Shown here piece by piece: positions 2,581-54,786 of a DNA stretch of 64,000 bases. Position 1 is the first letter of the stretch. Each line of letters opens with the position of its first letter. A program made the position numbers and the translations under genes. Source of the stretch: Chiloscyllium plagiosum (taxonomy: Eukaryota); assembly GCF_004010195.1 (NCBI RefSeq), contig NC_057749.1, positions 11,575,540-11,639,539 of the forward strand, read 5' to 3'. Under the pieces are notes generated by a model, which was not told the DNA's origin, searched no databases, and worked only from the letters and a program-made list of their open reading frames with translations.

Positions 2581-2813
2581 AGTTAAAAATCACACAACAC
2601 CAGGTTGTAGACTAACAGGTTTATTTGGAAGCGCTAGCTTTCCGAGTGCTGCTCCTTCAGGTGGTTGTGCAGCATAAGAATATAATTACAACTACCTGGT
2701 GAAGGAGCGGTGCTCCGAAAGCTAGTGCTTCCAAATAAACCTGTTGGACTATAACCTTATGTTGTGATTTTTAACTTAGTACACACCAGTCCAACACCCG
2801 CATCTCCAAATCA
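2581..2813. mobile_element. Penelope-like pLTR fold-back mini-element (family B)
   Basis: Inverted arms ~2581-2668 and 2688-2776 plus a 37-nt tail; same terminal sequence as the Penelope at 41155; degenerate TSD ttgatccagga/ttgatcgaaga. Confidence 0.8.
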
Positions 2814-2875
2814 TTGATCGAAGAATTTTCGTAAGTAATTGAAATTGTAACAGATTCCGCAACTTGTCTTTACAG

Positions 2876-2976
2876 CTAACATCAATTTGAATTCGATGAA
2901 CGAAGGCTGGTATGGGGCTCTGAAGGAATCTGTTCAGCAGCAACAGAGCCAGTTAGTTTGGGTCTCAGAGGGCAAG
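2876..2976 (+). CDS. TJP1: TJP1/ZO-1 internal exon (end of guanylate-kinase-like domain)
   Basis: tacag|CT...GGCAAG|gtagga; translates (x)[33 protein letters not shown], matching the ZO-1 GUK C-terminus; phase 1 to phase 0. Confidence 0.95.
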
Positions 2977-3763
2977 GTAGGATGAAAATTTATTATAATT
3001 TAAATCAAAACTGCACAATGTTATACTAAAATCTCTTTTTTCTTCTCTTCCCCACTGCATTATGTCATGAGTAGGCAGTGACTCACTCTGCTTTATTGCC
3101 TGTACCTATATAAATTCCCTGCCAGTATTGTCAGTGATGAGTAGATTATAAGAAATGACTAGTATTCTTCCTGCAAGTTCCTCTCTTGTGCTGTGACATA
3201 AAGAATTTGCAACATTACATATCCAATTCCTTTGGGAAAACAGGCAGGGGAGTTTTTGAACCAGTTAGTGTTTTGGTGTTTGAAATCTGAGTGTATGAAC
3301 TCCAGGAAGCGTTCCTGAGAAATTTGTTTGTATTTATATTGTTAAGAAAGTTGATGACTGGAGGGTTACTGAAGCACACCAATAAGTTGCAAGATTTGAA
3401 ATTGTTGAGAAGATGGATAACACTTGGTGCACGATCACATGGTGGGGGGGGGCTGTGGGGGGAGGTAAATCAACCAATGTTCCCACTCCTGATCACTACA
3501 GAATGATCTCTCCGGCAAAATGGCATGTATGAAGTCAGATGCATGAAGAATGATGTGAATATTCCTGCTGGAAAGTTATAAGACCTTTGCCCCTGCCAAC
3601 ACGCACACGCATGCGTGCACACCAGTTTCTCCAGGACTTTAAGAGGAGGAAGATCCTTCACATTTCTAATAATCCAGCTGGTCAATGGATGTTAACAAAA
3701 CACCTTGTTTACTGCTAAGTGTAATATTTGTTTAATTGTGTGATTTGACTGTTCTTTTTGTAG

Positions 3764-4105
3764 GCTGATGGTACAGCAGAGGATGATCTTGACTTGCACG
3801 ATGATCGCTTGTCATATTTGTCAGCTCCAGGCAGTGAGTACTCTATGTACAGCACAGACAGTAGACACACTTCAGATTATGATGACACAGATACTGAAGG
3901 TGGTGCCTACACTGACCAAGAATTGGATGAGACTCTCAACGATGAAATTGGTCCTACAGAATCTGCCATAACTAGGTCCTCAGAACCTGTACGAGATGAT
4001 TCGTCAATGATGCACTCTGAGTCAATGGCGCCGGCCTTCCCATCCTATCCAGTACAAGTTCAGAGAGTGGACTCTCCTGTGTACAAGCCTTTGTCTAATC
4101 AACAG
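3764..4105 (+). CDS. TJP1: TJP1 exon, acidic U6 region
   Basis: tttttgtag|GCT...CAACAG|gtgagt; 342 nt, ADGTAEDDLDLHDDRLSYLSAPGSEYSMYSTDSRHTSDYDDTDTEGGAYTDQELDETLNDE...SNQQ. Confidence 0.97.
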
Positions 4106-4605
4106 GTGAGTTCACTCTGATTTAAGTAGTTAATGTGTTTGATTAAGTGGTAATATACTATGTTAAAGGCAAAGCTTATTAGAATTCTGTCTCTTTTATT
4201 TGGAAAGTCTTGTTATAGCAATTGTATGGTAAGTTAAGTATTGAATTTACTTTGCATCTTTCAATGTAGAAAACAGTTCCCAGGTACCTCATGGCCATGA
4301 GGTAAAAATGAACATCAAACTGCAGAAGGAAATTGTATATTTGTAGTACAGATTTTGAGTATTGCCAAAAAAAAATGTACCTTTTGTTGAAGTCTTTCAA
4401 CTTGGTCTCATCTGGACATCTCTCCCAGAAATATAAGTTTAAGGAGAACCGATGCATATGCTGGAAAAGAGGAGAATACAGGTTGGTTGGCAAGTGGAAT
4501 CTGATCAGCAGAGATGCTGCCTTGGAAATGCACCCGTCAGTGCTGTTTGACAGTTAACTGCCAGGCTTTGTTTAAGTTTTAAACCAGGCAGAGTGATCAG
4601 ACTGG

Positions 4606-4951
4606 AGGAGAAAGTGAGGTCTGCAGATGCTGGAGATCAGAGCTGAAAATGTGTTGCTGGAACAGCGCAGCAGGTCAGGCAGCATCCACGGAACAGGAGA
4701 ATCGACATTTCGGGCATAAGCCCTTCTTCAGGAATGAGGAAAGTGTGTCCAGCAGGCTAAGATAACTCACTGAAATCTTTGTAGAGGGAGGAAGCTCTCT
4801 TCCTCCCTCTACAAAGATTTCAGTGAGTTATCTTAGCCTGCTGGACACACTTTCCTCATTCCTGAAGAAGGGCTTATGCCTGAAACGTCGATTCTCCTGT
4901 TCCCTGGATGCTGCATGACCTGCTGCGCTGTTCCAGCAACACATTTTCAGC
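4606..4951. mobile_element. Young Penelope pLTR fold-back mini-element (family A)
   Basis: 153-bp arms 4642-4794 and 4799-4951, 4-nt loop, 4 mismatches; exact 14-bp TSD AGTGATCAGACTGG at 4592-4605 and 4952-4965; same terminus as the Penelope at 51907-54492. Confidence 0.92.
4862..4889 (+). ncRNA. Minimal hammerhead ribozyme core (Penelope pLTR)
   Basis: CTGAAGA-AGGGC TTAT GCCT-GAAA-CGTC; mirror copy on the minus strand at ~4704-4731. Confidence 0.7.
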
Positions 4952-7051
4952 AGTGATCAGACTGGTCAGAGCATTACGCTGAGAAATGAACCACCTATTT
5001 TATTGAGTTGAAACAGATGCAGGGCATATTCATTGTTCTTTCTATTTATGAAGAATGGAACCTTGTATATTAATAGCTTCCAGTACACACAGTATGCCTC
5101 TCTGTGAGCCCGACTGACAATTCTAAGTTGACTGAGAGTGTAGGTCTTTGCACATTAGGTGTGACTCATCCGATATGGTCCAGCTACGGAATCACATCTA
5201 ATATTAGAATTGTTGTGAGTTACACAAGGGCAGCCTGTTTGGTTATGGTTAGTACCTGGCTTATTGCAAAGAACTGATGGGGTGTGCTATTTGATATGAT
5301 CTGTCAATCTTTGGGAACCAAAGATGGTGTTTGCCATTAACAGGGTGCTGATGTCAAGCAAAAAAGACTTTGTGGCTGTCACACAAATAATTAATGTGGT
5401 ATGTGAATTTCAGTGCCTGTGGAATAGTAAGTATTTAGGCTGTATGTCCCAGAGATTGGTGCCTTGTAACCAACAGTGCATCCCTTTGGCTGTTAGCATG
5501 TGAGGTATAGACCATACACTGACGGCCTGCGATTGCAAAACTTGCAACGCTGTGTCCAATACTAAATTCCACAGTTGGGCAACATTAGCTAGATAATCCT
5601 GAGCATTCAAAGAATTATATTGACAACCAATTTGAGGTTATCACTCAGGTTCATAGTGTGGTGTCCTTATATGTACTGGAAACTGTGCATATTAATGCAC
5701 AAGACACTTTTTTTCTCCAGACTGAGAACATGCCTACATCTGTTTCCACACAACAAAATAAGTGTGAACCATCCACTGATTTATTTCTCAGGGAAATGCC
5801 TAGACAAATGAAAATCAGCCCGCATAGCTTAAAATTCAAACAAAGCTTACAAGTTAACTGTCAATCATCACGACTTAGTGCATTCTTCATGGCAACACCT
5901 CTACCAGTGAGAGTCCACTTTCCTACTATGTTAATGCAGTATACATGTTGGTTTTCCTCTTGAATTTACATTCTTGTGAAACGTCCTGATAAATTGAAGA
6001 CCGAAAGTTTTTGACAAAATACATCTTTGTTAAGCAGCAAAGAAGGGAATAATAGGACGGGGTGACCAAAAGCTTTTGTCAGAAGTGGGTTTTAGCAAAG
6101 TGGGCAGCATTTGAGGAGGAGAAATCTAGAGTGGGGCGCAAGAAAGATTAGAAATCAGAGTCTAGCTGTGAGAATGGTTTAGCAGTGGGGTAGGTTACAG
6201 AAATGGACAGAGGTGATCTCTCCGAAAGATTAATATTTTTCAGTTGTGTTGGTAGGAAACTCTGGTCTCTATAGATCAATGAAGATGAAGTGATTAGCAA
6301 ATCAACTGCTGCAGGATAAGAGGGAAGCAGAATTTTTCAGGCACCTGAATTGAATTTCTCTATCTTTGGACAAGTTAGTTGGCTTCTGTCATTGTTCGAG
6401 TAATTGGACAAGGCCTAGTAGCTGAGAAAATTTACCAAGGGATGTATTTGTAGGGTGATCCGAAAGGAGTGCATGGTTCTAAAAGGGTATTTGGTAGATC
6501 TGCTACCCAGAACTGCTGCTGTTTGGCCAATTAGTTGTGCACAAAACATGCTCTTTTGTTAAACTTGAAGTAACAGAGAATGTGCCAGCAATAACTCCAT
6601 ATTGAGTCACAGGGCTTAACTTGTGTTTGCTAGAAAAGTTCATTTAAAAATTGCTTAGAATTCATTCACAAATCCCTGTTAGTACAAATTATTCTCTAAG
6701 TCTTTAACATACCAGTTCATTGTGATTTTAAAAATAAAAACATCATTAAAGATTTTTCTGCCTCATATAGTACATTATTTAACTCCAAACCAAAAGCTGT
6801 CCAATATAAAAGCCCATTATCTGTGTGTATAATTTTGCATCAGACTGTTTCTATCCTTCCTTTCAAAAATAAGCTGCAGAGGCAGAGACTGAATTTACTA
6901 TAAACAGGCAGGAGTCATCAACAGTAATTTTATTTAATTGAGATCAGGATTACAGTGCACCTGTTGGAAGATATACAGTTTTACAAGTTAGTCCAAGATA
7001 CCTTAAAATTCCATTTATTAAACCTTGTGTACCTTGACATTAGGTGATTAC

Positions 7052-7381
7052 ATTAGATTCCCTACAGTATGGAAACAGGCCCTTTGACCCAACAAGTCCG
7101 CACCCATCCTCTGAAGGGTAACCCACCCAGACCCATTACTCTACCCTGTATAGTTACCCCTGACTAATGCACCTAACACTATGGGCAACTGAGCATGGCC
7201 AATTCACCTGACCTGCACATCTTTGTGATTGTGGGAGGAAACCAGAGCACCCGGAGGAAACCCACGCAGACACTGGGAGAATGTGCAAACTCCATACAGA
7301 CAGTCACCCGAGGCTGGAATCGAGCCCAGGTCCCTGGCGATGTGAGGCTACCGAACTAACCGCTGAGGCACTGTGCCGCCC
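7052..7381 (-). mobile_element. HE1-type V-SINE
   Basis: tRNA-like head, V-domain (tggagtttgcacattctccc...gggtttcctccgggtgctc) and CR1-derived tail. Confidence 0.9.
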
Positions 7382-7779
7382 ACTTGGGTTAGCAAAACTG
7401 ATGCACCAGTCTGCTTCTACTCCCACTGCCGTTCTGTCTCTTCTTGAAGAGGATGAATTTCTTTTCCAGTTGTGTCACATTACTACTTCTAACATTTTAA
7501 TGCATACATTTTTGAACCTAGTTATAATTCTGTTAAGAATGAATTTTATACTTGCCAGATGTTTGTTTTTAACTTTGGTAAATTTGTGAAATCTTGCAGT
7601 AAGGAATTAGCTTCTATTTGTTAAATATTTTCTGTTTTAATTAATATGCTTATTGTGATTGAAATAACTATTTCAGAGTAATTTGAAAGTTAAGTCAACA
7701 TCTGTTTTGCCAACAATGCACCTTGTAGACAACATAAATTTCTATTTAAATAATTTATTTTATCTTGGACGTTTCACAG

Positions 7780-8049
7780 AAAGCAGATATTCCTTCTGCA
7801 GTCCCTAATTCATCCCAGCAGCTTGAATCAATTTCTGTGATGACTGTGCCCTCTAGAGTCAATACCATAGTAGACCTAAGTAATGTGAGACAAGAGGAGA
7901 ATGCTTCTCCTCCCCACAGCAGCCCTGAGTCCCAGATCAACTCTTACAGAAAACCCAGTCCTGAACTACCTCATGTTATTGATTCCATCAGTCCTGAGAG
8001 GCTGAGAGATCCAGAACCGACAGCAACTCGAACTGCAGAACCAACAAAG
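7780..8049 (+). CDS. TJP1: TJP1 alpha cassette exon (90 aa)
   Basis: tttcacag|AAAGCA...ACAAAG|gtaccg; 270 nt, phase 0-0; KADIPSAVP...VDLSNVRQEE...LRDPEP...EPTK resembles the mammalian alpha domain (KAE...NVRLEE...LRD..PTK) at the same position. Confidence 0.88.
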
Positions 8050-10276
8050 GTACCGCTTGCTGTAAATTCCTTGGCACGCCATATGTACGGAGCTTCTGCT
8101 TGCTTCTGCTCAATCACTTGCTTTGCCTCTGTAGTTGATCATATTGCTGAAGTTAGAGGCCAGACCAAATATGTGTTTTCAGTAGACCAATGGCCATCTT
8201 TCATGATGGAGAGGGAATAGAAAAGTTGTTGTCTAAACTCCTCCTACAAATGTTACTGACATGCTTTGTAAATACTGTGCGGTAGAGTATTCACTGAATA
8301 TTATAAGGGAACTGCACTAACACTTGGTATTTAATCAGAAAATTCTCTCTTCGAACCAAAAATGTTACCTGGCATACTAATTAATTAAAATTAATTATTA
8401 AGTTGATGTAATTGATACCAGACTCCCAATTTTTCCATTGTGTTGAGAATTTTTAACAAATTTTTATACTAATCTAATTGGCTTGGCCTATACCTTGAAC
8501 TTTTGCTTATATACCTTTGCTCTTTGAAAGCTTTCTGTAGTTCCTTCCTTCTAACTCCTCTTAGAAGATATGTTATGTGGGCTACTGTCTGTACCTTTCA
8601 TGGACTGCAACCAGCCTTGCTGTGGCATGATCAAAGGGGATTCTGATTTTAATTACAAGCATCAGCATGTTTGCCAATATGTGTTTTGTCTACATTTAAC
8701 TCTCTCGGATCCTTTTCAGGGCAGTTGCTTCAGTATCCTTATAACTTGGACTGTTGAAGGAGACAGGACTGAATTCTAAAATATGAGTTTAGCAATTGGT
8801 CTGCAATTATAACCTTTCTATTGATCAGTTGAGTCATGTTTTTGTATCAGTTAAGGTAGAAGCTGCCAATGTTCATTTTTAGTTTTTAAAAAATACTTCA
8901 TCTGCTACTTCAACAAATGCATTTAAATTTTGATTTTGTTCAGAACACCCATTTAAAAAAAAGACTTTTCAAATAATGTTACAAAGATACAACTTAAGGC
9001 AGCTGCGCTCAGTGGAAAATCATTTCAAAGTTTGGTATCCTTGACTCTCTACTTAGTTGTTTTGAGATTGTGATTACTAAAATCACCCTCTGGTTCTCCC
9101 TGACTGGCAGAGTTCCTCTATGTGCCAGCAGACTCTGCCATGCAATGTAAAATCAATCTTTTCACAGATCTGTTTACTTATGTTCTTCAGTACTCATGCT
9201 TAAAATTAAACTCCGTTCCATCAGCTGCATCGAGCACTTGATATATGTCCCCTTGATAGACTCCAGCCTTTGGAATCGAAGGGCATTGTCGGCAGTCTGA
9301 TGATATTAGCTGCCACTGCCCCACCTTCAGCACCACAATATGCATATATTAAAAGACAAATTAACTTTAGTTTGAATTGAGGCCTTTCAAAATAAAAGCC
9401 ACTTTCACTAGTTGTAACTTAACATCTGTCCCATTTATTGCAACTTTCTAAGTGCCATGCACAAAATGACTATTGTTGGAATACCTTTCACTCATGGCCA
9501 TGATGTTTTCAGATTCCTTTTAAAAACCTTTTGACCAACCCTATGCTACTTCCAGCATTTACTGTGATAAGTAAAACAAAACAATTTTAAAGGTAGGTGA
9601 CAATTCATCCTGTCCATAAATAAGTTACTTTACAGTCTACTGGACATAAATTATTAAGAGCTTTAAAAAAACTTATGAAGCTTCTAAACTGCATTTACCA
9701 TTACATTCCAATTTAAATTTGCATAATGTAAGCTCCATGCTAAGCTTATGCCTGTCCAATTCATACCTGTCGACAAATATTGCCTAAGCATCTTGAGTTT
9801 AGTTTATTATATCATATTTTTGAACACATCAGCTTTTTCTTTTAACTTCTAAATTTTACAATTCTGAAAGTCTTTAATTACTTTGAAATTCTTGGGTGTG
9901 TATGTTTTCAAGTTGATTTTAAAATGTTCCAGTATCATTTAAAACATTTTCTGGACAAATTTTTACCAAGTAAATTGGAAAGAAATTTTCTTCACATCTG
10001 TAAAATCAAAAGCAAGCAAGCAAATATTGAAAATCAAAAATAGATTTCTGGAAGTGCATAGTAGACCTATCACTTCAGGAAGGCAAGTTAGAATTTTCTT
10101 CTATATCCTCCAGAGCATGTGCTTTGATGAAGGGTGTATGTCTTGAATCTTAATGTGTTTTGTTCTGGATTTGGTGATGGAACTGCTGCAGGTTTTTGTT
10201 TTCTTTAAACTGCTTTGCATCATTACTTATGCAATGCCCATTACCACTGTCTGTTTAACTCCTCTATGCTCTGTAG

Positions 10277-11170
10277 ATATACAAAAAAGATTCGTACAAC
10301 AATGAACTTCCAAGGCAAAGTTATGACATCAAGCAGCCAGTAGGCAACCATCCTGCACTGAGAATTGATAAAGACCGACAAGTTTATGAACCACAACATC
10401 AGAACATTGAGGAACAGACACGTTATAGAAATGGATCTCAAACAAAATATGAGCAGCAGCTCTCCCCAAGTTTTGGACCTATATCGCATTATGAGGAAAG
10501 TTTACGTGGTTACAATGATAAGTGGCTACACTATAACGAAAAACCTACTCAACATGACCAACCTCCACCTTATTTTGAGGACCAGCATCCACTTGACTAT
10601 GATCCAAAGCACACTGAACATTATCCAGATCGTGACTACCATCCAGTTCATGAAGAGCTGCCATTTACAGGCTATGAGAATAGAATGCCACGTTATGAAA
10701 AGCCAGTTAAAAGCTACAAACCTTCACAGCCACATTACAATGGTCAACTCCTTCATGGCTATGATCAACCTCTTCATAGCTATGATCCTCGTCCTCAATA
10801 TGAACCTGATCCTCAAGCTTTTCATCCACCAACCTCCAAGTCTCCGGAATCACAACAGCAGTCTTTTGAGTCCCAAGTCAGAAGCTATGACCAGGGCCGA
10901 TCCCAAGAATATAATTCCCTCCCTCAGCAATTTGAACCAGTCCAGAACACAGATACCTTTCCTCCTCCTCCACCTCCTCACTCTAAAGGTGCTGAGTCTG
11001 CACATTCTGTTAGTAAGCCATTGCCTCCACCACCCATAAAGCCAAATGTTGATGAGGATGTGGATCCAGCAATGAAGCCACAATCAGTGCTTACCCGAGT
11101 GAAACTGTTTGAAAGTAAAAAGTCCATTTCATCAAAGGCCAAGGACCCCACCGAAATAACTTCAGTGAGG
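10277..11170 (+). CDS. TJP1: TJP1 large Tyr/Pro-rich exon (includes actin-binding-region-like sequence)
   Basis: ctgtag|ATATACAAA...GTGAGG|gtgagt; 894 nt open frame IYKKDSY...SKPLPPPP...DPAMKPQSVLTRVKLFESKKS...SVR; same frame as ORF 10685..11203. Confidence 0.95.
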
Positions 11171-12310
11171 GTGAGTAAAGTCATCAAAAGCAACAATGTC
11201 TAGTTTAGTTAAAGCTAATTATGCCCTTACCATAGCTTTTCCTATGCTTCTTGGTAGGATCATACTCTAACTTCCAATGTGAAACTTTGATTCAGCTTCG
11301 ATCAAGCCCTGCCTTTTATTTAGCATGGAACCTTTGCACCAACTTGCAGTCTACTTAGGAGAAAGAATTCCCGTGATCCAATATTCATGTACCTACCCTT
11401 GGGAATACATTTTGAACATTCATGTGGCAGGCTTGCTATGGCTTTCAAATATATTGTAAAACTAAGCCATTCTTTCAGGTTACTGACCATAGAAATTCAA
11501 TTTCTTCGAATTTGTGGTTGTTGACTGCTGTCATCAAAATGTGCCTTTCCACAACACGTACTAGTGTTGGTACTTCTGGGTTGTTTCTCAAAGAAGCCTG
11601 CTGTTTTCTAAAATTAATTTTAACGTTGCTTTTCTGAGGAGCATATAGAGTCATAAAGTTGTACAGCATGGAAGCAGACCCTTCGGTCCAGTTCATCTGT
11701 GTCGACCAGATATCCTAAATTAAGCGAGTCCTATTTGCCAGTATTTGGCCCATATCCCTATAAACCTTTCCTATCATACCCATCCAGGTTCCTTTTAAAC
11801 ATTTCTTCTGACCTTATGTGGTTTAAGTATTTAAGTTATGTGAAGCACCTCAATTGTCTGTGTTCTTCTTTGTGCCAGAGGTTTTTATTTTCCCCCACAT
11901 TTGGTTTAAATTATGCAAAGTTCCAATTTTGGAGTTTAAAAAAAATTGCTAGAAATACAGAACATCCATCACCATAGAGGAGAAAATATGGTTAATGGTG
12001 AAGGGGCCACTTCTGTATATTTCAAAGCTGACGCAGCCATGTAGTTACACTTTTGTGTTTTGTATGAAATTGCACATTCACAATTCTGTGACTTAAACCA
12101 ATTACATTTCTTTTAAAAAAATATCTTATGAATAATTAGTCACAATTTTATTTAGTGCGCACATTTTGATTAAAACCTTTTGTGTTTATCTAATTCTATA
12201 TTACCAGCAATACTCATGTTGTATGCATTGATTTCCATTTGAATGCTGGTTGGATGTGATCATGACCCTTCTTTCTTTCATTTTCTTCTATTTAACTTGA
12301 ATTCTTGTAT

Positions 12311-12574
12311 AGATTAGATTAGTTTAGATTACTTACAGGGTGGAAACAGGCCCTTCAGCCCAATAAGTCCACACCGACCCTCCGAAGAGCAACTCGCCCA
12401 AACCCATTCCCCTACATTTACCCCTTCACCTAACACTAGGGGCAATTCTGCACATTTTTGGACTGTGGGAGGAAACCGGAGCACCTGGAGGAAACCCACA
12501 CAGACACGGGGAGAATGTGCAAACTCCACACAGTTGCCTGAGGAGGGAATTGAACCCAGGTCTCTGGCGCTGTG
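12311..12574 (-). mobile_element. HE1-type V-SINE, 5'-truncated
   Basis: B box, V-domain and (TCTAA)n tail; A box missing. Confidence 0.88.
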
Positions 12575-13605
12575 TATAATCGCACAATAGCTGCATTTCT
12601 GTGGGCCATAGGCATTGCTGCTGCACTTCATGGTAAAATCTATCTCAGAATGAGACTGTCTCTCCACTGTGTCTTCGCTGACAGGATTAGATTGCATGTG
12701 CTTTTCTGTCTTCCAGGACTTGATCTGTAGGTCACAGTATTTCAAGTGCATTTGCAAGTGTGTTTAGGGTGCTTCTATCATCCTTTCAGGTAGTAAATTA
12801 CAGACGCCCACTACCTCCTAAGTGACATTTCTTTCTCAACTTCCATCTCAACCTCCCACCAATGGCTTTACATCTATGCTCCCTGGTTGTTATCTCTGTT
12901 AATGGAAGTGGATCCTTTCTACCATTGTTTAGGTTGCTAGTACAACTAAGGTTGAAGTGCACCAGCTCCTTTTTGGTCTCAATCTACTACGAGTCAGAAA
13001 TTTTAAATTTCGCCAGGGTGTCATGGTCAATTCAGCCAGATTTCCTTCAACAAAGAATAACTAGTTTATTATAAATACCAGTAAAATCTAGTCAAGAGGT
13101 TATTGAAAGGAAATATTTGTATGTACTAATATAGATATGATTTGTATTCTAATATCCCAAAATTAGTGAGGCAAATATGGATAACAAACGAATGCCAAGC
13201 ACCCCTCAGAATACATCAAATAATCTCCAAGGCAGTTAAGCTTCTTTTCTTCTAATGCCCTGCCCTGCCTTGCAGATTTTGAAGCCGTTTCTCTATCGTG
13301 GACTTCCTCAACAATTGCTCATGTTCTGATTGCTCACCTTGTTTTCCTGGAACTGTGTTCCTTTGAATTATTGGAATCTGCATGTCAGCCCAACTCTCCA
13401 ACTTTTCACAATGAGTTTCACAAAGATAGTCACTCCTTTGGATTTTATTTGAGCTCTGTTGCACAGGTCAAATATTGCTCGTGGACTCTCAATCCCCACT
13501 CTCTACTGACTGAACTATTCTCATTTTGATCCCATCACGCCACCTAATACCTCTGAGCCCTCCCCACAAAGTCATTCAGCTGCTCTAGGACTTACCTGAG
13601 CCCCA

Positions 13606-13945
13606 GGCATGATGGCTCAGTAGTTAGCACTGCTGCGTCACAATGCCAGGGACCCAGGTTCAATTCCAGCCTTCAGTGACTATCTGTGTGGAATTTGCAT
13701 TTTCTCCCTGTGTCTGCCTGGGTTTCCTCCAGGTGCTCCAGTTTTCTCTCAAAGTCCAAAGATGTGCAGGTTAGGGTGGATTGGCCATGCTAAATAGCCA
13801 ATAGTGTTCAGGGATGTGCAAATTAGGTGATTAGGCATGGGAAATGCAGAGTTACAGGGATAAAGTAGGGGGTGAGTCTGGTTGGGAGAGTTGGTGTGGA
13901 CTTGTTGGGCTGAATGGCCTGTTTCCACATTGTAGGGATTCTATG
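13606..13945 (+). mobile_element. HE1-type V-SINE
   Basis: A box tggctcagtag, B box ggttcaattcc, V-domain, tail gggctgaatggcctgtttcc. Confidence 0.9.
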
Positions 13946-14278
13946 AACTATGCAACTTGTGTAGTTCAGTTGCCCTCAGCAGCACCACTAATTGCATTCA
14001 TCTAACATAGAGTTTGCTTCTCTTTTGTCTTCCCAAGCTAACTATTGACCCTGAAACTGCTCTTTTGCAGCATCCTAATTTTTGAGTCACCAACTGAAAC
14101 TGTTGCAACAGACCCTATCACCAGTGCTAAGCAGAGCTGAACGTGACTTAGATTTTAGAACAGGCAGACATAGGACACTTTTAGAAGACTCCGTTTTCTA
14201 AATATTTTCTACTTTGTTAGGATGTTGCCTGACAGTACAAACTGCACAAAGCAAAAACCACATTTCTGATACACTTCA

Positions 14279-14595
14279 TTAGATTAGATTAAATTAGATT
14301 ACTTACAGTGTGGAAACAGACCCTTCGGCCCAACAAGTCCACACTGACCCCCCGAAGCGCAACCCACCCATACCCCTACATTTACCCCTTTAACCTAACA
14401 CTACGGGCAATTTAGCATGGCCAATTCACCTGACCCGCACATCTTTGTGACTGTGGGAAGAAACCGGAGGAAACCCACGCAGACACGGGGAGAATGTGCA
14501 AACTCCACACAGTCAGTCGCCTGAGTCGGGAATTGAACCCAGGTCTCTGGCGCTGTGAGGCAGCAGTGCTAACCACTGTGCCACCATGCCACCCA
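14279..14595 (-). mobile_element. HE1-type V-SINE
   Basis: Full head-to-tail copy with (TCTAA)n tail. Confidence 0.9.
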
Positions 14596-14844
14596 CATTA
14601 CTTAATCTTCCTGAACTAATTCTGTTCCGAAGAAGAAAACGTTAGCCAATCCAAACTTTTGGCAGAAATCCTCCGTTTCCTTGTAGAACAGTTGATTATT
14701 AGCAGCTTCTGAAATATCTCTCATTATAAGGTTCTTTTTAAAAGATCTTTGGCTGTAGCTTGACTTTGGGCACAGTTTTAAACCTATGTATAGAACTTGG
14801 TTCCAGAAATGCTCAATTTCAAATTGTGTGTTTTCTTATTACAG

Positions 14845-14945
14845 CCACCTGAAGTAGCTCCTAAACCTGTGTTAGTTCCGGTCGCTCCTTCCAAGTCAAT
14901 TATTCAGTCAACACCAGAACAGGAGAAACCTTCGCACTTATACAG
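14845..14945 (+). CDS. TJP1: TJP1 exon
   Basis: ttttcttattacag|CCACCT...TACAG|gtgcag; PPEVAPKPVLVPVAPSKSIIQSTPEQEKPSHLY(R); phase 0 to 2, fits both neighbours. Confidence 0.9.
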
Positions 14946-15000
14946 GTGCAGCTGTTATATTTGACATCTGGTTGGTGAAAGAACTTTGTTGCATCTTGAT

Positions 15001-15190
15001 GAAAGAAAAAAAAGACTTGCAGGACTTGTATTAATATATGTACAGCCAATTAAGTACTTTAGAAATACAGCTACTGTTGTCATGTTGGAAACACAGCAGC
15101 AAATTTGCATGCAACAAGTTCCCATGGCCAACTATGTTATAATGACCAGATAATTTTTGTTATGATGTTGATTTAAGTATAAAAATTTGT
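15001..15190 (-). mobile_element. DeuSINE (SacSINE1/AmnSINE1-like) 3' remnant
   Basis: Reverse complement reads tctggtcattataacat...gcaaatttgctgctgtgtttcc...acaacagtagct...aagtacttaattggctgta...gcaagtct, resembling the DeuSINE 3' part as recalled. Confidence 0.6.
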
Positions 15191-15199
15191 AATTTAGCA

Positions 15200-17760
15200 A
15201 GAATGAAGAAGCAAAACAGGTGAAATGACATTGCTTGGCATGGTTTCAGACTACCAAGTAAGGGAAATATGTAGAAGAATAACTTTACAAGGATATTCTT
15301 GAGGGACACGAGAATTATAGTGTGGTTATAAAATGGGACTTTATTCATCCAAGCGTAAACCAGGGTAGCAGTAATGTGAAGGGCAGAGAGGAGCAGGGAG
15401 GTCCTAGATTGGGTTCAGGTAAATATTCTCCAGCAATGAGAAAGGAGATACTGCTAACCTGATCCTTGCAAAACAGGTAGGCCAAGTCTCAGTAGGGAAA
15501 AACTTAGAGAACATTGCTCAATGTATCAAGGTTTAGATTGAGTACAGAAAAGGGCAAGAAAAATGCAGAGTAAGAATAAATAAGTTACTGGGGAAAAAAA
15601 CAATTTCAGTGGGGATAAGATGGATTCAAAGGTTAGTGGGCAAACCAACACTGAACAGTGGAATGCCTGAGAAATGTGTTCAGTGCAGGTATGTTGCCAT
15701 GAAGGGGAAAGATATTAGAGTTCACTGGTTGGTGAGAAATGGGATTAAGATGAAGAAGAAAAATTGTGCCTATGATATATTTCAGGTGGCTAATGCAGCT
15801 AAGACCCAGATTGAAAGTGAAATTTTGAGGGAATTCAAAAAAACAAAGAAAAAAAGTGAAAAGAAAGTAAGAGAAGAGACTGGCAGCTAACCTAAAAGGG
15901 AATCCCAAAGATTATTTTAATAAAAGACTGGTAAAAGAGGAGTGTGGCTGATTTGGGATCAAAAAGGATGTATTTGCACTTGGAAATTGGGGGAATGAGG
16001 TGTTAAATTAATTTTCTGCTTATGGATCTGCAAATAAAAAAAAATGATGATGCTTAGATCATGGTGAAAGAGGAGGTAATTCAGTCACTTGAAAAGGTTA
16101 ACATTGATGAGACAGAAGATTGGCACTTGTAAGATTATGTCTGTGGCATTATGTACAGTTCTGGGCATCACACTGAAGGAAGCATATGAACACATTGGAG
16201 AATACTGGGGGAAAACAAATTACATAAATGGTTCCCAGACTGAGAGACTTCAGTTGCGAGATAGATCGGAGAGAATGAAATTGATCTTGGAAAGACAAAA
16301 TGCTAAGAAAAAATCTGAGAGAAGTTTTCAAAAATCATAAAGGTATGGACAGAGTATATAGGGAGAAGCTATTCAAACCTTTTTTTAAATGAAAGGAAGA
16401 GAGGATGCAGATATGAAGTGATTTGCAAATATAAATGAGAGGAAAAGAATGTTTTCAAATGTGGTTGAAGTCTGAAATGCATTGCCTGAAAGTGTGGTGG
16501 AGGCAGAGTCATTTGAGGCATTCTAGAGGGCAATGTACAAGAATATAGGGAAGGGCACCAAGTTAGTGTTCATTGTGGAGTTGTTGCAGATGCCGTGGCC
16601 AAGTGGCCACCTCCTGCGCTGTTTAAATACTGACAAAATCTGAATTATAAGTTGATAAGGCACCTGGACCACATGCAATGCATTGAAGGATGCTGAGGGA
16701 AAGGACAATGTAAATTGCGGAGGCACTGGTCGTAGTTTTTCAGTTGTCTTTACACTTAGGTCGTGGGCTTGTGGCACAGTACCTCTACCTCTGAATTAGT
16801 TTCATGTCAAATTGCTGCAGAGGTATGTAATAATACTCTGAACATGTTGATTAAAAATATTTGCACTTGGATGGTGCCAAAGTGGACAATTGCAAATGTA
16901 ACATCTTTGCTCAAAAAGAGAGAGAATCCCTACAGTGTGGAAACAGGCCCTTCAGCCTAACAAGTCCATACCGACTCTCCAAAGATTATCCCACCCAAAC
17001 CCATTCCCCATTACTCTACACTTATCCCTGACTAATGCACCTAACCAACATATATTCCTAAATGCAATGGGTAGTTTAGCATGGCCAGTTTACCTAATCT
17101 GCAGATCTTTGGATTGTGGGAGGAAACCGGAGCACCCAGAGGAAATCCACGCAGACAGTCAGTTGCTCGAGGTAGGAATTTTACCTGGGTCCCTGAAGCT
17201 GTGAGGCAACCACTGAGCCACCGTGCTGCCCCAAGATGTAAAGATAATGATAATGAGGAATCTTCTGGAAACAATAATTCAGGATAAAATTAATACAGGA
17301 GACAGCTGGATTACAGTGTTACCTTAAGGCAAACCAGCACACACTTTGAGGGTGCACCATGCTTATCTAGGTTGGAGATTTTTGATGAGATAATAAAGGT
17401 TTGATGAGGGCAGTGCTGTTGATATAGTGTATGTGGATTTTGGGAAGGCTGTTAATACAGTGCCACACACTGACTTTTGACAACAAACTTGGAACTCATG
17501 GAATGAAAGGGACTTTAGCAATATGACATGAACTGAATGACAAGAAATAATTTAGTTAATGGATTTTTCTTTGAGCAGTGGATAGTTTATGGTACATTTC
17601 TTCAGGATGTTGAGATTCCTGTAACACAGTTCAGTAAAATGTGCAAAATTTGAGCATAATAAAAAACTTAACTGAATTGTGAACTGAGAGGCAGGTATAG
17701 AACTTCAAACGAATATAGGCTCGTGTTTAGGTGGCAGATGAAATTTAGTGCAGAACAGAA
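15200..17760 (+). mobile_element. Highly decayed CR1 fragments interrupted by a SINE
   Basis: Scattered CR1 ORF2-like motifs (NLKGNPK, WTIANVT, DEGSAVDIVYVDF). Confidence 0.6.
16926..17232 (-). mobile_element. HE1-type V-SINE
   Basis: Same head, V-domain and tail as the other copies. Confidence 0.88.
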
Positions 17761-17862
17761 TTCATATAAATAGGAAAAATCTTTTCAGTGTGATTGGTGA
17801 ACTCTATTGTAGTGTTAAGGCTGTAGTGTTTTCATAAAGTAGCTGAATGTCTGTACTTGCAG

Positions 17863-18081: not shown

Positions 18082-18339
18082 GTGAGTGCTGGCTGACGAG
18101 AAGAAGTTTACACTTTTTCAAGTTTTTTTTGGGTTTCATTTTATGTGATGCAGTTGTGAGAATGTATCTAGCCATCATGAGATTAAGATTACAGTTAATG
18201 TACTTAGATCTATGTGACTGATTCAAAGATACAGAGTAGTTAATGCTCCTGCCCCTTTTCATTCCACAGCTATCTCTGTTCATCTGTGCTGTCTCATTGT
18301 CAGTTTAGCTGCTCTGGGAAAGGTTTTATCCCTGTGGAT

Positions 18340-41154: not shown

Positions 41155-43030
41155 ATGATTTGGAGATGCTGGTGTTGGACTGGGGTGTACAAACTTAAAA
41201 ATCACATAACACCAGGTTATAGTCCCAACAGGTTTAATTGGAAGCACACTAGCTTTTGGAGCGTTGATGCTTCATCAGGTGATAGTGGATGGCTCAATCC
41301 TAACACACAGAATTTATAGCAAAAATTTACAGTGTGATGTAACTGAAATTATACATTGAAAAATTGATTAAGTCTTTCATCTGTTTGAATACCATGAAAG
41401 TTTCACTTCTTTCATCTGTAAATCACAAAACCTTTTTTAAAAGTTGCATTCTCAGGTTAGCTGTTAACAATGGGTGATAGCTAGACAATATGTTGAAGGT
41501 GTTGGCCCCCTGTGTTCTCTGTCTATGCCATGATGTTTAGATTGATTCTAATCTAAAAAGTGAGATAACGGAGTTCTACATGAGTGCATGCAGTTTTTGA
41601 GCAAAGTACAATGTAACCCCGTAAGTACAAATTCACCCCACAAAATGTGTGTGCATGTGGGTCTTTGACTGTCTGTCTGTGTGTATGTGTGTGTGTGTCT
41701 ATCTGGGTTGGTGGTGAGTGCAGAGTGTCTTAAGTCTGTGAGGGGGTGCATGTGGGAGTGTGGGTGTCTGTAAGGGTGTGTGTGGGTGTCTGTGCGCATC
41801 TGTGTATATGTGTGTCCATGTGTATAGGAGTGCCTCTCTGTGTGTAGTGCAATGGTGGTCACCTGTAATGTGACATGAACCCAAGGTGCTGGTTGAGGCC
41901 CTCCCTATGAGTACCGAACTTAGCTATCAGCCTCTGCTCGGCCACTTTTCTCTGCTGCCTGTCCCGAAGTCCGCCTTGGAGGATGGTCACCCGAAGGTCC
42001 GAGGTCGAATGTCCTGGACCACTGAAGTGTTCCCCAACTGGGAGGGAACACTCCTGTCTGTTGATTGTTGTGCAGTGCCCATTCATCCATTCTCGTAGCC
42101 TTTACTCAGTTTCCTCAATGTACCATGCCTCCGTGCATCCTTGCCTGCAACGTATAAGATAGACAACATTGGCTGAATCACATGAGTATCTGCCATGTAC
42201 AAGGTGGGAGGTGTCCCCATGCGTAATGGTGGTATCTGTGTCCACACTCTGACACATCTTGCAGCGCCTACCGTGACAGAGTTGTATGGTGGTGTCCTGA
42301 GAGCCGGGCAGCGGTTGTTTAAAGGAAAGTTATGGAAGTGTGCGGAAGGTCTTGGCGAGGTGCTCATCCTCATTGATGATGTGTTGCAGGTCACGAAGAA
42401 CATGGCGTAGTTTTTCAGCACCTAGGAAATACTGAACAACGAAGGGTACCCTGTCGGTTGCAGCACGTGTCTGTCTCCTGAGGAGGTCATTACGGTTCCT
42501 TGCTGTGGCATGTCGGAACTGGCGGTCGATGAGTTGGGCATCGTACCCGTTCTTGTGAGGGCAGCCCTGAGTACTTCCAGGTGTCCGTCATGTTCCTCCT
42601 CATCTGAGCAGATCTAGTGTATGCATAGGGCTTGTCCATAGGGGATGGCTGTTTTAATATATTTTGGGTGGAAGCTGGAGAAGTGTAGCATTGTGAGGTT
42701 GTCTGTGGGTTTGTGGTAGTGTGTGGTGCTGAGGTGTCCATCCTTGATGGAGATGCATGTGTCCAAGAATGAGACAGATAGTCAAGAGTAGTCCATGGTC
42801 AGTTTGACGGTGGGATGAAACTTGTTGATGTCACTGTGTAGTTTAATCAGTGACTCCTTGCCATGGGTCCAGAGGAAGAAAATGTTGTCAGTGTAGCTGG
42901 TGTATAATGTTGGTTGGCGATCCTGCATAGAAAAGAAGTCTTGTTCGAACCTGTGCATAAAAATGTAGGCATATTGGGTGCAAATTTGGTCCCCACGGCT
43001 GTTCCATGTGTCTGGATGAAGAACTGGTTG
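41155..43030 (-). mobile_element. Penelope-like retroelement (family B), 5'-truncated, RT + GIY-YIG
   Basis: QTHGTAVGTKFAP (PLE RT); SLPVGEHFSGPGH...AEQRLIAKFGTHREGLN (GIY-YIG C-terminus); exact 11-bp TSD CCTTTCCTTCT at 41144 and 43031; pLTR with mutated hammerhead core ~41249-41278. Confidence 0.92.
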
Positions 43031-43396
43031 CCTTTCCTTCTGTTTTTGTAAAACTGCAAGGATATTATGTTTATCCTGATTAAAAGAACTTCAGACAAGC
43101 TGCAGGAGTGCTTGAATGTAACTGACTTGGGAAAACTGCCTCATCTGAAAGTTTGATACTGCAGCTGCTTTAATTAGAATTTGCTTCTGGCTGTTGGAAT
43201 TGGAAAGCTCCCTAGAACTTAGAGCGGGTTCTAAATGGAAGATTGCATCATATATACCCTGCACTAAACTTGCCCTGGCCATACATGTGGGTGACAAATG
43301 TAGAAACTGGCCCATTGACCTGTGCTAAAATCCCTTCCCTTCATGAGTGAAACATTGGTTTGATACTAAACTAATTGGTCTGTTTCTTTCTTCCAG

Positions 43397-43491
43397 GTGA
43401 TCCTAAGAGCTGGCAGAACAAATCCCTACCTGGAGACCCTAATTACCATGTGGGGACAAATTGTGTCTCAGTTTTAATTGATCACTTTTAA
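43397..43491 (+). CDS. TJP1: TJP1 terminal coding exon
   Basis: ttcttccag|GTGATCCT...CACTTTTAA; DPKSWQNKSLPGDPNYHVGTNCVSVLIDHF*, the canonical ZO-1 C-terminus. Confidence 0.97.
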
Positions 43492-50520: not shown

Positions 50521-50526
50521 TATTTG

Positions 50527-50973: not shown

Positions 50974-50974
50974 G

Positions 50975-51205: not shown

Positions 51206-51905
<700 letters not shown>

Positions 51906-53132
51906 TGGGGGAAGTGAGGTCTGCAGATGCTGGAGATCAGAGCTGAAAATGTGTTGCTGGAAAAGCACAGCAGGTCAGGCAGCATCCAAGGAGCAGGAGA
52001 ATCGACGTTTCGGGCATGAGCCCTTTTTCAGGAATGAGGAAAGTGTGCCAAGCAGGCTAAGATAAAAGGTGGGGAGGAGGGACTTGGGGGAGGGGCGTTG
52101 GAAATGCGATAGGTGGAAGGAGGTCAAGGTGAGGGTGATAGGCCGGGGTGGGGCAGAGAGGTCAGGAAGAAGATTGCAGGTTAGGAAGGCGGTGCGGAGT
52201 CTGAGGGTTGGGACTGAGAAAAGGTGGGGGGAGGGGAAATGAGAAAGCTGGAGAAATCTGCATTCATCCCGTGTGGTTGGAGGGTTCCTAGGCAGAAGAT
52301 GAGGTGCTCTTCCTCCAGGCGTCGTGTTGCCATAGTCTGGCGATGGAGGAGGGGGAGTTAAAGTGTTCAGCTACGGGGCGTTTGGGTTGGTTGGTGCGAG
52401 TGACCCGAGGTGTTTTCTGAAACGTTCTGCAAGTAGGCGGCCTGTCTCCCCACTGTATAGCAATAGTCCATCTTCCGCAGCTACACTGGCACCACCCCCC
52501 ACCTTTTCCTCCACTTCATCGATAACTACATTGGCGCTACCTCGTGCTCCCACAAGGAGGTTGAACAGTTCATCCTCCTAACACCTTCCACCCCGACCTC
52601 AAATTTACCTGGACCGTCTCAGACTCCTCCCTCCCCTTCCTAGACCTCTCCATTTCTATCTCGGACGACCGACTCAACACGGACGTTTACTATAAACCGA
52701 CAGACTCCCACAGCTACCTAGATTACACCTCCTCCCACCCTGCCCCCTGTAAAAACACCATCCTATATTCCCAGTTCCTTCGCCTTCGCTGCATCTGCAC
52801 CCAGGATGACCAATTCCAATACCGAACAACCCAGATGGTCTCCTTCTTCAAAGACCGCAATTTCCCCTCAGACGTGATTAATGATGCTCTCCACCACATC
52901 TCCTCCACTTCCCCCTCCTCCACCCTTGAACCCCGGCCTTCCAATCGCCACCAGGACAGAACCCCACTGGTCCTCACCTACCATCCCACTAACCTCTAGA
53001 TACATCGTATCATCCTTCATCATTTTTGCCACCTCCAAACAGACCCCACCACCAAGGATATATTTCCCTCCCCACCCCTATCAGCGTTCCGGAAAGACCA
53101 TTCCCTCCACGACTCCCTCGTCAGATCCACAA

Positions 53133-53756
53133 TGTAAGTGTTCAAAGTTTGTGCGAAGATATGTAGCTCGGGTGCTCGTTGTTGTGGTTCTGTTCGCCGA
53201 GCTGGAAGTTTTTGTTGCAAACGTTTCGTCCCCTGGCCAGGCGACATCATCAGTGCTTGGGAGCCTCCTGCGAAGCGCTTCTTTGATGTTTCCTCCGGTG
53301 TTTATAGTGGTCTGTCCCTGCCGCTTCCAGTTGTCAGTTTCAGCAGTTTCAGGTCCAGATCGATGTGTTTGTTGATGGAGTTTGTGGATGAATGCCATGC
53401 CTCTAGGAATTCCCTGGCTGTTCTCTGTCTGGTTTGCCCTATGATAGTAGTGTTGTGATAGTACAACACTACTATCATAGGGCAAGCCAGACAGAGAACA
53501 GCCAGGGAATTCCTAGAGGCATGGCATTCATCCACAAACTCCATCAACAAACACATCGACCTGGACCCAATATACCAACCACTACAGCGGACAGCTGAAA
53601 CTGACAACCGGAAGCGGCAGGGACAGACCACTATAAACACCGGAGGAAACATCAAAAAAGCGCTTCGCAGGAGGCTCCCAAGCACTGATGATGTCGCCTA
53701 GCCAGGGGACGAAACGTTTGCAACAAAAACTTCCAGCTCGGCGAACAGAACCACAA
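53133..53756. mobile_element. Penelope pLTR fold-back element (family C) nested in the family A element
   Basis: Arms 53181-53456 and 53463-53757, loop gatagt, 48-nt tail; TSD CAGATCCACAA at 53122 and 53757; REFLEAWHSSTNSINKHIDLD GIY-YIG tail. Confidence 0.92.
53685..53718 (+). ncRNA. Minimal type I hammerhead ribozyme core
   Basis: GCA-CTGATGA-T-GTCGCCT AGCC AGGGGAC-GAAA-CGTT-TGC; palindromic AAACGTTT; intact mirror copy on the minus strand at 53220-53253. Confidence 0.75.
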
Positions 53757-54406
53757 CAGATCCACAACCCCCATCAACCCAACCTCCACTCCTGGCACCT
53801 TCCCCTGCAACCGCAAGAAATGCAAAACTTGTGCTCACACCTCCCCCCTTACTTCCCTCCAAGGCCCCAAGGGATCCTTCCATATCCGTCAGAAATTCAC
53901 CTGCACCTCCACACACATCATTTACTGCATCCGCTGCACCCAATGTGGCCTCCTACACATTAGGGAGACAGACTGCCTACTTGCGGAACATTTCAGAGAA
54001 CACCTTTGGGACACCCGCACCAACCAACCCAACCGCCCTGTGGCTGAACACTTTAACTCCCCCTCCCACTCCGCCAAGGACATGAGGGTCCTTGGCCTCC
54101 TTTATTGCCAGACCATGGCAACACGACGGCTAGAGGAAGAGCGCCTCATCCGCCTAGGAACCCTCAACCACAAGGGATGAATGCAGATTTCTCCAGCTTT
54201 CTCATTTCCCCTCCCCCCACCTTTTCTCAGTCCCAACCTTCAGACTCAGCACCGCCTTTTTGACCTGCAATCTTCTTCCAGACCTCTCCGCCCCCACCCC
54301 CTCTCTGGCCTATCATCCTCACCTTAACCTCCTTCCACCTATCGTATTCCCAATGCCCCTCCCCCCTACCTTTTTTCTTAGCCAACTTGGCACACGCTCC
54401 TCATTC

Positions 54407-54434
54407 CTGAAGAAGGGCTTATGCCCGAAACGTC
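54407..54434 (+). ncRNA. Minimal hammerhead ribozyme core
   Basis: CTGAAGA-A-GGGC TTAT GCCC-GAAA-CGTC with perfect stem II. Confidence 0.75.
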
Positions 54435-54509
54435 AATTCTCCTGTTCCTTTGATGTTGCCTGACCTGCTGCGCTTTTCCAGCAACACATTTTTAAATTCT
54501 CATGCATGA

Positions 54510-54786
54510 AGCAACCAGAAATCTATCAACAAACACATTGACTTGGATCCCATTTACCACCCCCGAGAAAAAGAACAGGAAATGATGTCCCCACAGGAAA
54601 TGACATCATCCTCCAAGGAAATCCAAACATATAAATAGAAAGCAGGCTACACCCCCAGTGCTTCATCCAGAGGCTCACTGAAGATATTATCTAGTATGGT
54701 GACGAAATGTCTAAAAATGCACCTTCCAGCTCAGTGAGCAAACCTACATCCAGAACCTCAACCTGCGCTACAAATCTTCTCATAAC
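54510..54786 (+). mobile_element. Penelope pLTR fragment (related to family C) with hammerhead-like core at 54678-54711
   Basis: SINKHIDLDPIY motif; CTGAAGA TATTATC tagtat GGTGAC GAAA TGTC. Confidence 0.75.

Follow-up and report, generated by a model that had tools for sequence, protein, structure and literature searches.

The stretch of DNA analysed here, 64,000 nucleotides (nt) from the shark Chiloscyllium plagiosum (NCBI RefSeq assembly GCF_004010195.1, contig NC_057749.1, positions 11,575,540 to 11,639,539 of the forward strand; hereafter, the window), contains parts of the genes TJP1 and ENTREP2 and, in their introns, repeated copies of a hammerhead ribozyme motif. The copies in the window are very probably retrotransposition fossils of three families of endonuclease-bearing Penelope-like elements (PLEs), denoted A, B and C, which carry a minimal type I hammerhead, the intronic copies being inert passengers for ribozyme purposes. 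As a comparison of sequences, the identification of the motif as the PLE minimal hammerhead is sound, and the motif is of a known kind. A preliminary description of the window had reported a recurring hammerhead motif of the Penelope kind, in several families whose helix II sequences differ and still pair. Both claims are borne out.

The copies were assigned with per-family profile hidden Markov models (nhmmer) built only from genomic copies outside the window and then run on it. A single covariance model for the three families was dropped: the MAFFT alignment sets their helix II in incompatible columns, so that no single structure line fits, and the per-family profiles were used instead. Ten of the 14 places listed in the preliminary description are 3'-tail fragments of the three families, each with the minimal type I hammerhead, and an eleventh copy, absent from that list, is an eroded family C tail at ~2660(-) that has lost three core bases. 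All eleven copies give profile matches, with E values from 7.6e-6 to 1e-52, and blastn is concordant (Table 1). Family A is matched at 4619-4960 (both arms), 51919-52054(-), 54378-54499(+) and 62544-62718(-), with E from 1e-12 to 1e-52; family B at 53153-53263(-), 53675-53760(+) and 54676-54751(+, E 7.6e-6); and family C at 2581-2679(-), 2687-2799(+) and 41169-41330(-). Four further places had been described as eroded hammerheads. One of these, 63709, is weakly upheld by a collinear match to the family A tail at 63755-63778 (E 0.07); the other three, 5986, 10124 and 26978, have no family profile match at E <= 10 and none by blastn, and are rejected as hammerhead copies. Two weak matches to the distal part of the family A tail, 51659-51725(-) and 47939-47974(-) (E ~0.02), include no hammerhead part and may be tail-only fragments.

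The copies share one plan, in which CUGANGA is followed by one extra base, helix II, GAAA and then palindromic ACGU or AGCU. The family A form is CUGAAGA-A-GGGC-UUAU-GCCC-GAAA-CG-U-C (copies 4862+, 4731-, 52031-, 54407+ and 62653-), the family B form is CUGAUGA-U-GUCGCCU-AGCC-AGGGGAC-GAAA-CG-U-U (53685+, 53253- and the diverged 54678+), and the family C form is CUGAUGA-A-GGAGC-GGU-GCUCC-GAAA-GC-U-A (2696+, 41278- and the eroded ~2660-). The unpaired base between A9 and G10.1 is A in families A and C and U in family B, and G10.1-C11.1 is present in the consensus of all three. Helix II is GGGC/GCCC in family A and GGAGC/GCTCC in family C, and in family B it is paired at six of its seven positions. 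The palindrome at 15.2/16.2 is ACGU in families A and B and AGCU in family C; with loop 3 missing, helix III has to form between two molecules. Helix I has two contiguous pairs in family A (four positions, one of them U.U) and three each in families B and C. The minimal hammerheads of PLEs have the same core, CUGANGA...GAAA, the same extra base between A9 and G10.1, the same G10.1-C11.1 pair, a palindromic 15.2/16.2 without loop 3 and a short helix I, and their helix II is longer than the canonical one, as in shark family B with its seven positions (PMC4209133). The helix I of the shark motif, only 2-3 base pairs (bp) long, is at the low end of this description.

The catalytic core (C3 U4 G5 A6 N7 G8 A9 ... 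G12 A13 A14, A15.1, U16.1, H17) is present in full in the genomic forms of families A, B and C outside the window and is intact in seven of the ten tabulated copies, namely 4862, 4731, 54407, 62653, 53685, 53253 and 54678. The other three had already been described as mutated, and they are: 2696 reads CTGGTGA (A6 to G), 52031 reads CTGAAAA (G8 to A), and 41278 combines a broken helix II with AAAA in place of GAAA (G12 to A). Only 53685(+) and 53253(-) retain every consensus core base and pair. In 54407(+), A for G at 1.1 leaves helix I without a contiguous pair. The earlier label of intact or near-intact is generous for 54678(+) and 62653(-), in both of which A.C at 10.1/11.1 replaces the pair of G10.1, with an additional C.A at 15.2/16.2 in the latter. 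When two copies are cofolded, dimers other than the double hammerhead result, and that of family A forms via the imperfect 13-nt self-pairing palindrome GAAACGUCGAUUC. This palindrome occurs in family A copies, for example, at window positions 4882-4894, and the predicted dimer pairs there rather than via ACGU, tying up core bases G12-A14.

In the whole genome (3.56 Gb), the general motif has at least 166,498 matches, about one per 21 kb, compared with 323 for the same pattern reversed, which served as the control throughout. Words specific to the families match 140,868 times for family A, 10,709 times for family B and 29,504 times for family C, with no control match in any of the three cases. 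When the second pair of helix II is restricted, the motif with an extra base after A9 occurs 2,082 times (42 in the control) and that without it 84 times (40 in the control). Proportions given here for genomic copies (15.2/16.2, 10.2/11.2, 5' ends and starts at the cleavage site) each refer to 100 matches listed. CG or GC occupies 15.2/16.2 in 94 of them, although the pattern permitted all four S-S combinations, and four features outside the search pattern recur among the genomic matches.

Helix II also covaries across the genomic copies. The preliminary description had named two outcomes as refuting, a lack of any model match and a lack of stem covariation; the former is observed and the latter is not. 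Copies with A at 10.2 (976 in all) have T/U at 11.2 in 38 of the 100 listed, compared with one of 100 among the 37,595 copies with G at 10.2, which amounts to ~371 compensated copies against ~6 expected under independence. This compensated A-type subfamily, GAGC/GCUC, differs at another position as well, with U at N7 in 32 of the 38 compared with nine of the 62 remaining 10.2-A copies listed. The difference at N7 marks a separate lineage, and therefore the compensation counts as one event rather than hundreds. Further compensated forms of helix II, of the C type, are GAAGC/GCUUC and GAGGC/GCCUC, with GAGUC/GACUC as an additional new form, and A-U replaces the G.G of family B both in the 54678 copy and in a variant from a fetched locus. 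Each variant of helix II is probably a single event inherited by many copies, making a handful of events in all. At the level of sequence, compensatory change between subfamilies indicates that pairing of helix II mattered in the active master elements. With at least 166,000 motif-intact copies, the genome constitutes a rich natural data set for the covariation of hammerheads.

The relationships of the open reading frames (ORFs) that accompany the motif point to its carriers. The family B ORF contains a GIY-YIG-like domain and reads through into the hammerhead, with the TAG stop codon in loop II (window positions 53699-53701, and likewise in genomic loci L033, L051 and L060); the 5' half of this hammerhead thus doubles as the coding sequence for the last five residues of the protein. 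At its C-terminus, a 463-residue shark protein (P0244) with an RVT_1 match upstream shares 86% identity with this ORF, and a 705-residue protein (P0251), in which the upstream RVT_1 domain is above the Pfam cut-off, shares 67%. In addition, residues 7-80 of the ORF align (E 2e-14) with the GIY-YIG domain, called above the Pfam cut-off, of a 326-residue protein (P0269). The family A ORF is related to that of family C (E ~1e-13), which in turn shows similarity to the GIY-YIG regions matched by family B. Endonuclease-bearing PLEs combine a reverse transcriptase (RT) with a GIY-YIG domain at the C-terminus (PMC11167929 and PMC8557442). In the window, the GIY-YIG-like ORFs of families A and C end 226-632 nt upstream of the motif; among fetched loci of ~3 kb, 30 per family, such an ORF lies upstream on the same strand in two family A and five family C loci. 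Three other ORFs of the window with RVT_1 matches, 56833-60158(-), 23812-25892(-) and 32486-34236(+), are rejected as PLE parts: they are LINE-like (long interspersed nuclear element), with an endonuclease/exonuclease/phosphatase domain or a weak zf-RVT match, have no GIY-YIG match and are unrelated to the PLE fragments. In a related shark, annotation treats intronic PLE fragments as alternative last exons of MAP3K7 and NT5DC1 isoforms.

The structure of the insertions is that of PLEs, too. The distance from the start of the motif to the 3' end of the insertion is ~75-125 nt, and target-site duplications border the short copies. Three copies in the window form head-to-head foldbacks with their own inverted copy (2593-2766, 4635-4958 and 53180-53758), and among the fetched loci (29 per family, the reference locus being left out) a second hammerhead-bearing copy in opposite orientation occurs no farther than 1.5 kb away in 12 for family A, 16 for family B and 12 for family C. 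Such inverted pairs have been described for PLEs (PMC8557442), and they fit the finding that an Anolis PLE extends both DNA strands (PMC11167929). The near-perfect foldback of family B also accounts for an apparent microRNA gene at 53394-53525, where several covariance models score on both strands, below their gathering scores; this candidate is rejected.

Taken together, these features suggest that each insertion is the 3' end of a 5'-truncated element, joined in three cases head to head with its own inverted copy, as is usual for PLEs. The hammerhead would belong to the 3' (pseudo-long terminal repeat, pseudo-LTR) region of the element, overlapping the last RT/GIY-YIG codons in family B and lying ~230-630 nt behind the ORF in families A and C. 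Judging from the literature, it would act weakly within RNA of the element itself, either as a dimer or helped by the element's protein. The copies in the TJP1 and ENTREP2 introns, most of them mutated or locked in long hairpins, would be inert as ribozymes.

Several results weigh against this interpretation or against cleavage as a part of it. Pfam recognises neither GIY-YIG nor RT in the window's own ORF remnants, so that the assignment to PLEs rests on homologues, and searches of Pfam, NCBIfam and PDB sequences with the ORFs of the window and of the loci give no GIY-YIG match (PDB matches to designed TPR proteins and a Cas10 match were dismissed as noise). The RT of families A-C is deduced via relatives rather than read, the upstream RT stretches being N in the fetched loci and truncated in the window copies. 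Helix I, at 2-3 bp, is at or below the 4-5 bp of most minimal hammerheads, although 2 bp are reported for D. virilis. The hammerhead covariance-model search proposed in the preliminary description, run with the Rfam models, finds nothing at the gathering score or at E <= 10 in the whole window, in 53150-54780 or in six loci with exact family copies; given that Rfam is silent even on exact family copies, the missing match reflects the model library and not the motif. As for signs of cleavage, 1,063 RNA reads placed on 53465-54800 (from ~13 million scanned in a poly(A) single-cell run with the same species label, and pooled from all similar copies rather than locus-specific) show no position at the threshold for molecules beginning or ending. 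Likewise, among 100 family A matches listed that hold the exact 20 bases after the cleavage site, none starts at the site: 96 run upstream into the hammerhead and four break 3-7 nt before the site. Hence, insertion seldom, if ever, used cleaved RNA as its template.

The 5' ends of the genomic copies are concentrated elsewhere, at the edge of the hammerhead. In family A, homology ends <= ~5 nt upstream of the first core base in 58 of 100 matches listed, with an inverted copy of the same tail next to 27 of them and unrelated DNA next to 31; another 36 continue with the element's own sequence, and six are other cases. In family C, ~47 of 100 end <= ~11 nt upstream of the first core base. Family B has no such hotspot, with only three of 100 listed ending at the 5' edge of the hammerhead. 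The end classes of families A and C were sorted by eye, some family C rows being ambiguous, and the matches were selected identically in all three families, so that selection cannot explain the difference between families. A step in the depth of DNA contigs at 54403-54410 fits the family A boundary. The commonest form of family A is a short unit of 95-130 nt that extends from the 5' edge of the ribozyme (position -4) to ~+90 or +125 and is flanked by target-site duplications; only one direct pair of family A copies was noticed, 145 nt apart (C1:4847270 and C1:4847415). The initiator-like word TCATTC at the family A boundary was set aside as a transcription start, family C having no such word. 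The boundary may reflect RNAs that start there, together with internal initiation on an upstream pseudo-LTR, or reverse transcription that halts at this point, or snap-back at the helix II palindrome. Tentatively, the RNAs of families A and C could begin exactly at the ribozyme, through transcription start or processing, and a SINE-like (short interspersed nuclear element) unit of hammerhead plus tail, perhaps copied by internal RT initiation on an upstream pseudo-LTR, could explain most of the >100,000 copies; we consider this possible but not probable. If true, the ribozyme would occupy the very 5' terminus of the RNA, as do the HDV-like (hepatitis delta virus) ribozymes of R2 elements, yet would cut 32 nt inside. 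In either case, a sharp 5' boundary in two of three families is a clue to where PLE RNAs start or reverse transcription stops.

The simple pattern CTGAWGA-N6-30-GAAA has 13 matches in the window compared with 4.3 +/- 2.4 in 100 shuffled windows, one of which reached 13. A rival explanation, that chance alone produces the matches because the pattern is short and loose, and that no ribozyme motif is involved, has some support in pattern matches that are plainly random (for instance, 9160-9190, 17566-17605 and 33060-33099), in addition to the silence of Rfam and the three eroded places left without support. A stricter descriptor of our own finds three sites, among which 47594(-) is probably chance (mean 0.05 per shuffle in 200 shuffles, 0 in the reversed sequence), and is itself too strict, missing family B because of the G.G mismatch inside helix II and 4731 because of U.G at 15.2/16.2. 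Against 323 reversed matches in the genome stand 166,498 forward ones, and to these are added profile E values down to 1e-52 and the recurrence of features that the search pattern did not contain. Chance is refuted for the eleven copies and stands for 5986, 10124 and 26978; as a general explanation, it has next to no probability. Another rival is the possibility, raised in the preliminary description, that nascent host RNA is a substrate for self-cleavage: the sense copies, above all the three at 53685-54711, would pair via an ACGU/AUGU helix III into double hammerheads and cut the nascent pre-mRNA of TJP1 or ENTREP2. The exons of both genes map on the + strand, so that the location of sense copies in their introns, as previously claimed, is correct: 2696+ and 4862+ in TJP1 and 53685+, 54407+ and 54678+ in ENTREP2 intron 1, with the other six copies antisense. 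Moreover, 53685 and 54407 share ACGU, with which the AUGU of 54678 could pair, and motifs of this type are generally accepted to act as dimers (PMC4209133). However, three of these five copies (2696+, 4862+ and 53685+) follow their own inverted copy, and the minimum free energies of the resulting foldbacks in host-sense RNA, -115, -309 (4635-4958) and -548 kcal/mol (53180-53758), respectively, compare with -7 to -13 kcal/mol for the local hammerhead region. Of these three, 2696+ also has a dead core, and the remaining two sense copies are impaired, 54407+ by the loss of the first pair of helix I and 54678+ by that of G10.1. Read ends do not pile up; position 54435, which adjoins the family A site, is covered by 401 reads, pooled from similar copies, and read depth over the family A tail is about equal in both orientations, which suggests passive read-through. 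None of the 100 copies listed starts at the site. In vitro, PLE minimal hammerheads cleave weakly and depend on dimers (PMC4209133), and the Anolis hammerhead is cleaved only with the element's own protein, has no RNA-seq ends at its site and is unnecessary for insertion in vitro (PMC11167929). The two negative fossil tests, the lack of starts at the cleavage site and the reads that cross it, agree with this one biochemical study of a vertebrate PLE. Cutting of the host pre-mRNA at the TJP1 and ENTREP2 copies is unsupported, and we regard it as very unlikely; in the annotation of both genes, the copies are ordinary intronic repeats.

Two other explanations concern what the motif or the insertions do instead. 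The shark motif might be kept mainly for a use other than cutting, with its fold marking or forming the 5' end of a short RNA unit or being bound by the element's protein, and cleavage being marginal. The 5' ends at the motif edge in families A (58) and C (~47), compared with three in family B and with the four breaks before the cleavage site, would fit such a use, as would the lack of any listed copy starting at that site; the Anolis hammerhead is dispensable for insertion in vitro (PMC11167929), and Naiad PLEs thrive without a canonical hammerhead (PMC8557442). Yet the core bases, known to be required for catalysis only, are kept across families that are otherwise divergent, family B has the motif without the hotspot, and an RT stop or snap-back at the helix II palindrome could give the same boundary with no role for the fold. 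On balance, a non-cutting use appears quite improbable. Alternatively, the main effect on the host could come from the insertions themselves, through foldbacks that give rise to long intronic double-stranded RNA, a target for editing or small RNAs, and through PLE fragments that serve as alternative last exons. The foldback energies of -115 to -548 kcal/mol are compatible with the former, and the microRNA models score on 53394-53525 only owing to the perfect hairpin; the latter has a parallel in a related shark, where annotated isoforms of MAP3K7 (P0247, residues 413-525) and NT5DC1 (P0249, residues 275-377) terminate in sequence of the family B ORF, with 82-90% identity. However, differences between reads and DNA, a potential trace of editing, stem from other copies and are seen in DNA contigs too, and the two isoforms are database predictions from another species and not from this locus. 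An effect of this kind is unlikely to be the main one, and fossil PLE insertions with inert hammerheads are the explanation that we prefer.

Comparison with known systems places the shark motifs among the minimal hammerheads of PLEs. In addition to the anatomy, they share with those in PMC4209133 the occurrence of many consensus families per genome with compensatory changes, the association with PLE ORFs, and copies that are mostly single or form opposite-strand pairs 100-700 bp apart. The differences are in the host, a shark, with none found among the fishes, coelacanth, Xenopus and reptiles named in the main text of PMC4209133; in the number of copies, at least 166,498 here compared with ~4,000 in coelacanth and ~9,000 in Xenopus, a rough comparison given that the descriptors differ; in the helix I of only 2-3 bp; and in the stop codon in loop II of family B. 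Full-text searches turned up no published account of these motifs in a shark, although the supplements of PMC4209133 may list cartilaginous fishes. The shark genome is hereby added to a ribozyme class described in 2014, and Rfam proves blind to that class. The Anolis Poseidon element PAc (PMC11167929) is likewise a vertebrate PLE with a hammerhead that overlaps an ORF and lies shortly upstream of the 3' end ('tail') of the insertion, and for which, as in the shark, no RNA-seq reads start or end at the predicted site. In contrast to PAc, in which the ORF starts at helix II, the ORF of shark family B ends in loop II and the motif of families A and C lies outside the ORF; furthermore, cleavage has been shown for PAc with the protein, whereas the shark motifs are known from sequence.

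The canonical type I and type III hammerheads of Rfam have an identical catalytic core and the same order of helices; the shark motif differs from them by the lack of a closed helix III, of the loop-loop tertiary contact and of any Rfam match. Some canonical motifs are intronic in amniotes, where they are conserved single-copy sequences and not repeats. The non-LTR retrozymes, short, non-autonomous, hammerhead-bearing sequences related to PLE pseudo-LTRs (PMC7229834; bioRxiv 10.64898/2026.07.22.740005), are reported in the one cartilaginous fish of the latter study, and the 95-130 nt units of shark family A, with their target-site duplications, look like monomer derivatives of this kind. Retrozymes are, however, defined by tandem arrays, canonical type I hammerheads and circular RNAs, whereas the shark copies have the minimal motif and are dispersed singles or inverted pairs; no head-to-tail tandem hammerhead repeats are present in the window.

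Table 1. Hammerhead-bearing insertions and host gene exons in the window (positions counted from its first letter)
Feature	Positions	Strand	Evidence
Family C tail, inverted foldback arm; eroded hammerhead from ~2660 downwards, three core bases gone	2581..2679	-	nhmmer E 9.5e-25; inverted repeat I6, 82% complementary
Family C tail, sense to TJP1; hammerhead 2696-2724, core CTGGTGA (A6 to G), helix II GGAGC/GCTCC, GAAAGCUA	2687..2799	+	nhmmer E 1.1e-35
Family A tail, inverted arm; hammerhead 4731-4704, core intact, U.G at 15.2/16.2	4619..4765	-	blastn, nhmmer; inverted repeat I2, 96% complementary
Family A tail, sense to TJP1, in the intron between exons 3764-4105 and 7765-8052; hammerhead 4862-4889, G.U at 10.1/11.1	4828..4960	+	blastn, nhmmer
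Family C 3' end, antisense to TJP1; GIY-YIG-like ORF remnant 41910-42421 with stops and, ~630 nt downstream, hammerhead remnant 41278-41250, helix II broken, GAAA to AAAA	41169..42421	-	tblastn; nhmmer E 5.4e-35
Family A 3' end, antisense, ENTREP2 intron 1; GIY-YIG remnant 52268-52401; hammerhead 52031-52004, core CTGAAAA (G8 to A)	51912..52401	-	blastn, nhmmer
Family B 3' end, inverted arm; hammerhead 53253-53220, all consensus features present	53153..53449	-	blastn, nhmmer; inverted repeats I1 and I4, 98% complementary
Family B 3' end, sense to ENTREP2; GIY-YIG ORF end enters hammerhead 53685-53718; stop TAG 53699-53701 in loop II	53470..53760	+	tblastn with family B ORF of genomic locus L033, 98.7% over 78 residues
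Family A 3' end, 5'-truncated, sense to ENTREP2; decayed GIY-YIG ORF to 54177, ~226 nt untranslated, hammerhead 54407-54434 (core intact, 1.1 G to A), tail to ~54495	53760..54499	+	blastn, nhmmer
Diverged family B-like 3' end, sense to ENTREP2; hammerhead 54678-54711, A.C at 10.1/11.1, helix II held by wobble pairs and A-U where family B has G.G	54512..54751	+	blastn, tblastn, nhmmer E 7.6e-6
Old family A-like tail, antisense, ENTREP2 intron 1; eroded hammerhead 62653-62627	62544..62718	-	blastn 76-77% identity; nhmmer E 1.1e-12
Possible, very eroded family A copy (place 63709)	63700..63778	+	weak tail match 63755-63778, E 0.07
Host gene TJP1 (ZO-1), last 11 coding exons	2797..43488	+	tblastn of full-length ZO-1 (P0013); ZU5 domain E 2.9e-14
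TJP1 exons	2797-2976 (exon itself ~2876-2975), 3764-4105, 7765-8052, 10277-11170, 14839-14949, 17861-18082, 21340-21522, 29657-30115, 37567-37842, 39001-39147, 43396-43488	+	tblastn
Host gene ENTREP2 (FAM189A1), exon 1	51281..51493	+	best named match ENTREP2, 91% identity; tblastn of P0124

The host genes are identified by their exons. Shark ZO-1 proteins match the ZU5 exon of TJP1 (37.6 kb) with 100% identity. The search with P0124 by tblastn finds no further exons of ENTREP2 in the window, the part of the window downstream of exon 1 being intron 1. The TJP1 intron between exons 10277-11170 and 14839-14949 contains, at 12448-14590, a nest of inverted repeats (I3, I5 and I7) that are 75-87% complementary.

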